Source: a virus (lineage: Duplodnaviria; Heunggongvirae; Uroviricota; Caudoviricetes). From it: DNA of 13,766 nt. Location of the stretch: the IMG/VR virus record IMGVR_UViG_2585427710_000002, positions 1 through 13,766 of that record, one strand, 5' to 3'. Shown here piece by piece: positions 1 through 3,000 of the stretch. The stretch's first letter is position 1. Each line of letters begins with the position of its first letter. Made by a program: the position numbers.

Positions 1-3000
1 GAAAAACGAGTATTTTTAGTCATCCTGTTTACCTCTTTCTCAGGAAGTTTAGTCTCCAGGATTCCCGGGGCGGTTCACCGGCTCAGTGCCGTAAAGCTGC
101 GCCAAAAGTTCGGTGGTAATAACAGGAATCTGGTTATGGGTGATCGGGGAGAGAGTTTCAACAGAAATTTGAGTTGTCATAATGACGCCCTCTGGTGGTT
201 TCTTAATAACTCACCACCGACGACGCCAATCGTCTGGTGGTGAACTGTGCAGGGTTGGCGTAACCGGGAAACCGACCGGCGCGGATCTCTCCGCCCCCAC
301 ACAGCCCACCATAATTCAGATGTGCGCGTGCATACGACAATAAAAAACACGCTCGCGGCGTGTATCTGTCGCGGTCTCTATCCAGGACGCCAATCCCGAC
401 GCCAGATTTTGCTGGCGCGTGAGGAATATAGCCCCGAATAAATCATCGCGTCAATCACCTTGTTTTCCTCGCACGATGTCTTAGCCACCGGATATCCCAC
501 AGATGAGCCGTGTAGTTGAAGGTTTTTACGTCAGATTTTTTTGGGATTAGCTTGCGTTTATTTCTGGAGCGTTTCGTTGGAAGGTATTTGCAGTTTTCGC
601 AGATGATGTCGGTGATGCTTCTTTGCTGTCGCCTCATGCCGCCCTCCTGACGCCCTGCCCGATCGCCATCAATGCCGCTTTGGATACAGTAGTAAACATT
701 CGTCGAGGACTGATGAACGGTCGCCAAATCAGCAGCATGGAGCCTTTGCTGTTTCCCTTCTTCTCCAGCCCTGTCGATGGTTCGATAAAATTAATCCGTC
801 CATCAGTGATGATGCGAACTTCGTCGACACTCTCCAGAGCCTTGCTGAACCATCCGACTGACATATCCTCTGGCACAAGCATCACTACCGTCTGTCGCTG
901 TTGTATGCACTGCTCAGCGGCTTTTTCCACCCACGGCCTGATATTGCTGTACGGTGGGTTATTCCAGATTGCACCGTGGCTTACCCACTCAGAATTGAGC
1001 GCGTCGTCGGCCTCAGTTAGCCAGTGAGCACACAGAGCATTTTTGTCGCTCGCTGCCGAATCCAGCCAGAATCCAAACTCAATATCCAGTGCATCAAAAA
1101 GCCAAAGCGGCGTTTGCCAGCAGTCCTTGTCGTGTGCTGGCGTATTTGATTTGATAGTCATGCAGCCCTACCTTTTCGTTGTGACCATTCATATTCTCGC
1201 CGGGAGTCATCACTCCACCGCACGTTGCGCTCTGAGCCGAACCAGAACATGATTTCGATAAGCTCAGTCATGCTGGCCTTCCGCATTTTGCTGGTACGCA
1301 CGCCAAGCATGACAACGCCACCGTCGATACCAGGCACACTTCGTTGCTCCAGTTTTTTGGTCTTAAGCCACAGGGCAGTGAACAGGTCTTTCCAGTCTTC
1401 CGGCGCCAGCCGTTGACCATGCCATAGCACCTGACGCGAAACATCGTTCAGCATCGGCCACATACGGTCATTCTGCGCTTTGCTGCGCTTGGGTTCTTTA
1501 ACGTGGACTTCGTGGGGTGACTTGTCGTCGATGGGTAGTGAGAGAATGGCGTCTATGGCGTTATTTCTGATTGCTTCGTTGCGAAGCAGAAAGGTTTGCT
1601 TCATCTCCTGCTCTCCGGTTCCATTTTTCAGCCGCCGCAGCAACTGATGGTGCCCATGCCCCCCTGGCTTCACAGAGGTCACATTCTGCATAGCCCCACA
1701 CATCAATATTTATTCCGGCCTCAACCCACAGACGAGCATTACCGCCGCAAAACGGACATTCTTTTAGCTTTGGCTGGGTTAATGATAGGTCGCTCATGCT
1801 CACTCCTTCACTTTAAATCCAGACTCCGGATAATTCTGTTGCGCTGAAACTCATTGTTGAGTTTGAACAACCGTCGAAGAACACGGTCACGCGGATAGCG
1901 TCGTGCGGCAGGTGAATGCTCATACAACTCATCAAGCGGCAAACTGGACGATGAACGATACCGATACCAACGCACCAACTCTTCACGAAAATTAGCCCTG
2001 ACAAGCTCAGCTATCGTACTCATTTCTTAAAACCTCCTCAAACGCATTCTGACGCATTTTTCATTCTCGCTGCTTATTGGCATGCCTTGCACGCGTTTAC
2101 CTCGCTACAGAGCGATTGTGATGCCTTAAAAGCGATTTATTGAAGTGATATTTGCTTAATCGAAATTCTTTTCTTTGATTCCTGCGGCCCTGATGGCTTT
2201 CATTACTGCAATTACCGTTTTGTCACGCCCATCCTCATAACCCATCGCATAAGCACCTTCTTCACCATCTTTCCAAAAGTCGTCATTCGATTCGGGCCAG
2301 TCGATATCCAGTTCAATAGCAGAGCGCGATGCCTGCCATATCACCCAGGCAAACTCTTTTAATTCATCGTCTCCCGTGAACTGGCTTTTGTCTTTTGACC
2401 ACCAGTTTTCAAACTGTCGGTAGCTATCGTTCACTTCCCTCTCCCCCAAATAAAAAGGCCTGCGATTACCAGCAGGCCTGTTATTAGCTCAGTGATGTAG
2501 ATGGTCATCTTTTAACTCCATATACCGCCAATACCCGTTTCATCGCTGCACTCTGGCGACACTCCTTAAAAATCAGGTTCGTGCTCATCTTTCCTTCCCG
2601 TTCTTCCCTGGTAGCAAACCGGTAATACACCGTTCGCCAGACCTTACCTTCGATAACCAGAAGACCTGCCCGTGCCATTTTAGCCGCAGCCTGATTTATG
2701 CTGGTTACGGTTGCGCCTGTTACCGCGGAAACGTCCTGTGCACAGAAGTTCTTATGCGTCCCGAGGTAATGAATAATTGCCTCTTTGCCCGTCATACACT
2801 TGCTCCTTTCAGTCCGAACTTAGCTTTAATTTCTGCGATCTTCGCCAGAGCCTGTGCTCGATTTAGAGGTCTGCCGCCCATGACAGGAAGTTGTTTTACT
2901 GGTTCAGGTATCGTCTCACCACGGTTAATTCGTGCTGTCATACAGGTCAGTTCATCGGCAGCCTTGCGCCGTAATTCCGCGTCAGTCAGCGCATTGGCCC

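Follow-up and report, generated by a model that had tools for sequence, protein, structure and literature searches.

An untranslated spacer in the nin region of a Shiga toxin-converting lambdoid prophage, read as a probable mosaic joint with chance palindromes

The 132-bp gap between two accessory genes in the nin region of a Shiga toxin (Stx)-converting lambdoid prophage is probably an untranslated, passive spacer, a mosaic joint with chance palindromes; judging from sequence comparison, we give this reading a probability of about 0.7. The prophage occupies the window, by which we mean the whole analysed stretch of 13,766 nucleotides (IMG/VR record IMGVR_UViG_2585427710_000002, positions 1 to 13,766), and its early-right operon lies on the minus strand. 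The two flanking open reading frames (ORFs) are called ORF92 and ORF71 here. The features needed at this point are as follows.

2024–2155, between ORF71 and ORF92: the gap, untranslated, 132 bp
2156–2434, minus strand: ORF92, 92 amino acids (aa), GTG start, the gene upstream of the gap
1808–2023, minus strand: ORF71 (DUF7301), 71 aa, ATG at 2023–2021, the gene downstream of the gap
2456–2479, minus strand: tR2-type intrinsic terminator hairpin, found by a terminator scan, downstream of ren

The preliminary description of this DNA had placed the gap inside the nin operon, called it unusual and palindrome-rich, and proposed that it might mark an internal promoter, a regulator-binding site or a module junction. 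Gene order confirms that the region is the start of the nin region in a lambdoid early-right operon, and 2024–2155 is indeed the longest untranslated stretch in the gene run. Neighbouring junctions, measured on a nearly identical phage as annotated in its deposited record, are overlaps of 4 nt or 44 nt, or measure 10 nt and 70 nt, the 70-nt one containing tR2.

Neighbours and distribution of the spacer

Of the proposed meanings, the module junction is the one that agrees with the comparison of relatives, which lose homology to the window at ~2160, ~2145, ~2037 and ~1996, in or beside the gap. Because its partners change at at least four points, the spacer is a mosaic joint: the same block stands next to different neighbours, and similarity is lost abruptly. 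Specifically, Lahn2-type Stx2a phages carry a different upstream ORF, and similarity stops at ~2155–2160. The ORF92 homologue of mEp213 and of a Salmonella phage has GAA in place of the TAA stop codon and continues beyond it, and similarity stops at ~2145. Phages with a DnaB-type replication module (our loci L099, L105 and L110) have tR2/ninA joined directly to the ORF71 ribosome-binding site (RBS), GGAGGTTTTAAGAAATG, with no gap; similarity to the window starts at ~2037, and the junction reads GGAGG(T/C)TTT(A/G)AGAAATG, followed by ORF71. Other contigs keep ORF92 and the gap and switch the ORF71 allele after codon 9, at ~1996, the switched alleles having 61–72% protein identity. In addition, the next gene starts after only 2–3 nt behind distant ORF92 homologues in Salmonella phages, and in E. 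coli Z1323CEC0019 (locus L111, 1595–2900) IS1203 is inserted at ~2103, separating the distal gap and ORF92 from ORF71.

The last ~14–17 nt before the ATG (GGAGGTTTTAAGAA) form the ORF71 RBS in every arrangement. The remaining ~118 nt occur only in company with an additional gene between tR2 and ORF71; where tR2 abuts ORF71, they are missing. On the other side of ORF92, the block 2433–2508 is common to lambda, P22, HK97 and others, and several records annotate tR2/ninA there; the tR2 hairpin marks where the nin region begins and forms the left anchor of a cassette with ORF92 and the gap. The idea that the gap is the relic of a deleted gene was rejected, as only ~11 nt after the ORF92 stop codon are homologous to a longer frame (mEp213, S.Inf 5-2).

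By analogy with lambda, the spacer would be transcribed within the N-antiterminated early-right (pR) operon, downstream of tR2. Its role would be mainly passive, separating cistrons and carrying the translation-initiation region of ORF71, and its ~90 nt of near-identical sequence may serve homologous or homeologous recombination that reassorts the flanking nin genes.

ORF71 is itself mosaic. Its alleles, 57–87% identical, agree in their first 9 codons and in a YPRDRVLRR block that is invariant, and exchange their middle and C-terminal segments independently.

The gap is present in 465 of 5,426 complete E. coli genomes, at 631–633 places and in up to 4 copies per genome, and in 169 phage records. 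It is rare in metagenomes (only 9 matches) and has no matches in a set of species-representative genomes. The polymorphic core of the gap, described below, matches by itself the same 631 places in E. coli genomes as the whole gap; extra core copies elsewhere, for example in CRISPR (clustered regularly interspaced short palindromic repeats) spacers, were rejected, the core being confined to whole-gap places. In the Sakai prophage Sp5, the gap corresponds to NC_002695.2 1,261,594–1,261,725, between ECs_1192 and ECs_1193. No record has an annotated feature inside the gap, except for the RBS of ORF71 in one record. Mosaic joints in the nin region are already known for lambdoid phages, and the gap is an ordinary, common, unannotated spacer of Stx prophages.

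Anatomy of the gap and its palindromes

Compared across 98–99 copies (IMG/VR contigs, phage records and assemblies), the gap divides into an invariant part of 46 nt, a polymorphic core of 39 nt and an invariant distal part of 47 nt.

2024–2069, minus strand: proximal part, the ORF71 leader, invariant, with the Shine–Dalgarno (SD) sequence GAGGAGG at 2033–2039 and an ACGCATT repeat at 2042–2058
2070–2108, unstranded: polymorphic core with both palindromes, two main allele backbones and many variants
2109–2155, minus strand: distal part, invariant in Stx-type relatives, non-coding
2076–2098 and 2115–2137, plus strand: imperfect direct repeat, 17/23 identical, 39-nt period, first copy variable

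Every motif of the preliminary description was found where it had been placed. The palindrome GGCATGCC lies at 2079–2086 and ACGCGT at 2091–2096; the direct repeat ACGCAT-TCTG-ACGCAT lies at 2042–2057 and is properly ACGCATT twice with a 10-nt period; and the complement of GAGGAGG lies at 2033–2039, 9 nt before the ATG of ORF71. The description "palindrome-rich" is not borne out statistically. Against 5000 dinucleotide-preserving shuffles of the gap, the 6-bp palindromes (2 observed, 2.8 expected; at least 2 in 78% of shuffles) and the 8-bp palindrome (1 observed, 0.74 expected; at least 1 in 53%) are no more numerous than by chance, and the palindromes are also not kept in relatives. Short direct 6-mer repeats number 2 against 0.57 expected (at least 2 in 14% of shuffles). 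Jointly, the three features are present in 16% of the shuffled sequences and 4% of the real 132-nt windows taken from this sequence. The imperfect repeat with the 39-nt period is marginal against chance by our own estimate.

The core, which contains both palindromes, is the part of the gap that is conserved least. It occurs in 24–26 versions among the copies compared, with nearly all changes being transitions and with 1–2-nt indels at 2074–2075 and 2082. GGCATGCC is intact in ~41 of 98 copies and is replaced in the others by GGTATACC (the commonest form), GGCATACC, GACATGCC, GGCGTACC and others. ACGCGT is intact in ~30 of 98 copies, ACGTGC being commoner at the same site, and nearly every base of both palindromes varies among copies. 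As the palindromes are intact in a minority of copies, their behaviour is unlike that of a conserved binding site, and they appear to be chance features rather than binding sites.

The polymorphism of the core stands out from its surroundings. Segregating sites occupy 18 of its 39 positions versus 6 of 72 third-codon positions in ORF71, presumed to be near-neutral (p=1.4e-5), and 3 of 93 positions in the rest of the gap. No position from 400 to 2640 has a higher nucleotide diversity (pi) than the core, where it peaks at 0.10. Comparable peaks exist in ren, P and the O iterons, but each of these has only 3–6 discrete alleles, against 26 haplotypes among 99 copies of the core; the 600 nt flanking the core are ~99.5% identical. 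Among complete E. coli genomes, core identity is bimodal, with two backbones at ~100% and ~85% to the window. The polymorphism may reflect a local mutational hotspot or relaxed constraint with allele shuffling. In the O gene, whole repeat units of the iterons (4016–4085) are deleted in some relatives.

The distal part is identical at 47 of 47 positions in nearly all of 46 distinct rows, and stays with ORF71 when the upstream gene is exchanged. Within the proximal part, only 2024–2037 is shared with gap-less phages, and the ACGCATT repeat can form a small, wobble-rich mRNA hairpin directly before the SD sequence.

A 44-nt piece of the gap (2024–2067), with the RBS and the ACGCATT repeat, has an intergenic counterpart of 86–88% identity in virulent Justusliebigvirus phages of the phi92 type (locus L005, 1201–1244; locus L006, 1201–1242). 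One side of that counterpart is the stop codon of gp164/Phi92_gp037, the other a bidirectional terminator; its opposite strand keeps the RBS and ATG, with an ORF of only 9 codons. The proteins flanking it are not homologous to those at the gap, and a tblastn search of the phi92-like locus with ORF71 and ORF92 gave no match. The match could be a shared element or an exchange scar between unrelated phages. For the 15-nt repeat motif ACGCATTCTNACGCA in IMG/VR, matches beyond the Stx and phi92 groups resemble chance matches of a 14-base pattern.

Promoter, RNA and Rho readings of the gap

A minus-strand promoter within the gap, or an operator formed by the palindromes, would drive or control ORF71 and the downstream nin genes, and the unusual length of the gap followed by a strong RBS would fit such a role. 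We consider it very improbable. The sigma-70 promoter scan, run on both strands of the gap in the window and in two other alleles, gave no site of at least 9/12; the weak candidate seen by eye, GTGCAA-18 nt-GAGAAT, matches at 7/12. As to the operator, the dyads occur at chance level, are not kept in relatives with the same flanking genes, being missing from most copies, and are struck by indels that would change any spacing. ORF71 shows no helix-turn-helix or ribbon-helix-helix fold of the kind that would suggest autoregulation. Its AlphaFold2 model is a helical hairpin (pLDDT, the predicted local distance difference test score, 76) with no PDB fold match at E≤0.001, and a DNA-binding autoregulator, of which the model gives no sign, was dropped as a candidate. 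By eye, a sigma-54 motif has a GG-GC spacing that is 2 nt too short, and CRP, LexA and IHF motifs have no convincing match.

On the opposite strand, the core and distal part hold a box resembling the sites of the lambda activator CII.

2087–2119, plus strand: candidate CII-type box, TTGC-N6-TTAC, 13 nt, GATTGT, oriented like pRE and antisense to the nin operon

In CII-dependent promoters, TTGC-N6-TTGC straddles the −35 region and a weak −10 element comes 12–13 nt later. Here TTGCACGCGTTTAC has one mismatch to TTGCN6TTGC and is followed by 13 nt and GATTGT (2114–2119). If functional, CII would bind at TTGC/TTAC and RNA polymerase at GATTGT, as in a leftward promoter like lambda paQ, and the RNA, antisense to ORF92, ren and P, would damp early-right expression during the lysogeny decision. 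The layout equals that of the phage's own pRE-like site at 4735–4767 on the plus strand (TTGCTGTAACTTGT-N13-TAATTT), which overlaps the start of a P22-C1-like cII gene (4461–4757, minus strand), as pRE overlaps the cII start in lambda. The orientation is also that of the lambda CII-dependent promoters pRE, pI and paQ, all of which are leftward. In addition, both tetramers (2087–2090 and 2097–2100) and their spacing are invariant in 98 copies though 18 of 39 surrounding positions vary (our own hypergeometric estimate, ~0.003); the bases that vary are those of the N6 and others upstream of the box, and 2087–2119 is free of indels. Such a promoter is nevertheless distinctly unlikely. About 10% of 132-nt intervals are expected to hold a one-mismatch box per strand, and the window has 14 such boxes versus 20.9 expected, no enrichment; the mismatch removes the G of the second tetramer, the −10 element matches at only 3/6, and no plus-strand terminator lies downstream. 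Because the box was spotted only after many other motifs had been tried, and in view of its chance frequency, we rate it low. It is a long shot that the invariant box functions as an antisense promoter under CII control in the nin region and gives Stx phages a second brake of the paQ kind on early-right expression, with the dense surrounding substitutions due to transcription-linked mutation or to selection at a specificity site. An exact TTGCN6TTGC also occurs at 5033–5046, on the minus strand.

Two further possibilities concern the operon mRNA, transcribed from the minus strand. A cis-acting element could tune translation of ORF71 or act as a processing or stability site, either as a long hairpin (2135–2067) with a variable apex or as the small ACGCAU-repeat hairpin before the SD sequence. 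An RNAalifold consensus of 23 variants has a common basal stem, UCGCUUUUA/UAAG-CAGCGA, and 99% of cells paired; besides 12 extra pair types there is one compensatory pair (U-A 12, C-G 6, U-G 4). Its covariation score is exceeded in only 7 of 500 shuffles. The SD-proximal hairpin is kept in the phi92-like copy, with a change from A-U to G-U. These counts are biased towards structure, since the structure was derived from the same closely related sequences, and the gap variants are too alike for a firm covariation test. Furthermore, stability is not above that of shuffles: fold z-scores range overall from −1.4 to +0.8, the two strands of 151 nt giving +0.16 and +0.80, and the main alleles folded singly (−1.4 to +0.4) have different inner folds, with only the basal stem in common. 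The commonest allele, GGTATACC, breaks a pair, and the covariance models of Rfam 15 have no match in 2024–2155 at gathering score or at E≤10. With these points on either side, we regard the cis-acting element as unlikely.

We likewise find it rather improbable that the gap is a site of Rho-dependent polarity, at which the stop codon of ORF92 would expose C-rich, G-poor, unstructured RNA (~2200–2101) to Rho, so that only N-modified polymerase would go on to express Q and the nin genes downstream. N-suppressed terminators are typical of the lambda nin region, and 132 nt of untranslated RNA follow the stop codon. The interval 2200–2101 is the only stretch with C above G from tR2 to the middle of ORF71 (C/G 1.1–1.4 vs 0.2–0.9 in the flanks), and in the distal part (2109–2155) the mRNA strand has 12 C and 5 G. 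However, the excess of C is weak and extends over a short stretch, G predominates in the remainder of the gap (24 C and 32 G in the whole gap), comparable C/G values occur within ORF71, and natural gap-less phages lack such a stretch. As for intrinsic terminators, the scan of both strands in the window and two other alleles gave none within the gap, and the only match in 1500–2900 was tR2.

Small coding and RNA candidates were also rejected. The 21-aa minus-strand ORF at 2027–2092, the only one of at least 20 aa, has its frame broken by 1–2-nt indels and loses an internal ATG in GGTATACC alleles; a 15-aa plus-strand ORF fails on indels and loss of its start codon in relatives. The known small RNAs of enterohaemorrhagic E. 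coli (EHEC) prophages, HnrS, Pas, StxS and 24B_1, all lie in late or other regions and not in the gap.

Several observations weigh against a passive spacer as the whole account. The polymorphism of the core exceeds that of third-codon positions and comes in its 26 haplotypes, for which simple neutrality is not a full explanation. Conversely, the outer thirds of the gap have common polymorphisms at 0 of 93 sites vs 9 of 165 third-codon positions (p=0.03), an invariance that hints at some constraint beyond the RBS, and the 44-nt piece recurs in unrelated virulent phages. Moreover, the common core polymorphisms nearly all keep a pair or fall on unpaired bases in the RNAalifold fold (the exception is G-to-A at 2081), and one pair of that fold is changed on both sides. 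The polymorphic core and the CII-like box are the only leads that deserve experiment.

The surrounding window and comparison with known systems

The minus-strand order is O-P-ren-tR2-ORF92-gap-ORF71-Lar-like ORF-NinB-Dam-type methylase, with the genes upstream of tR2 placed as follows.

3490–4428, minus strand: O
2792–3493, minus strand: P
2505–2795, minus strand: ren

Positions 1500–2800 of the window are 100% identical to several Stx1a-converting phages and 98–99% identical to 933W, VT2-Sakai, BP-4795 and other Stx phages. ORF92, carried as an annotated coding sequence in Stx2a_F422, belongs to the phiTE_015 family of unknown function (the name given by the Prokaryotic Genome Annotation Pipeline; precomputed PF26207; phrog_343). 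ORF71 matches Pfam PF23975 (DUF7301) at E=3.8e-26; its function is unknown, also in PHROGs.

Elsewhere in the window, Rfam matches at gathering score on the minus strand comprise the C4 antisense RNA (233–316), its a1/b1 target (379–431) and isrK (342–418), which suggests that 233–431 is an antisense-controlled module of the antirepressor/anti-Q type, downstream in the nin region. On the plus strand, 8450–8508 matches the lambda cIII thermoregulator element at 84 bits.

The main use of these results is negative, in that the palindromes are not to be annotated as a regulatory site. If the CII-like box or Rho loading were real, the gap would be one more control point upstream of Q, through which late transcription and hence Shiga-toxin expression are governed; for phage and EHEC specialists, the interest would be moderate.

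The candidate box resembles lambda paQ, pRE and pI in its plus-strand TTGC-N6-TTAC, in the poor −10 element after 13 nt and in its leftward direction, and it is antisense as paQ is in Q. It differs from them in the mismatch of the second tetramer, in its chance frequency and in its place between nin genes rather than in Q, and its response to CII is a prediction only. ORF92 and the ~118 nt of trailing DNA are present or absent as a unit, as are morons and other accessory cassettes of temperate phages. A classical moron has its own promoter and terminator; neither was found here.

It is established that lambdoid phages are mosaic and that recombination at short, similar flanks reassorts their modules (PMC2327257, on enterobacterial lambdoids). 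The gap differs from the joints described there, and in the comparisons of HK97, HK022 and HK620 cited there, in having several breakpoints within ~170 nt and in being a non-coding block with a polymorphic centre; no event of recombination was seen directly. Like those joints, the gap is a short block of high similarity between unrelated or diverged flanking genes, with breakpoints at or near gene ends, and it lies in the nin region, where lambdoid gene content is most variable.

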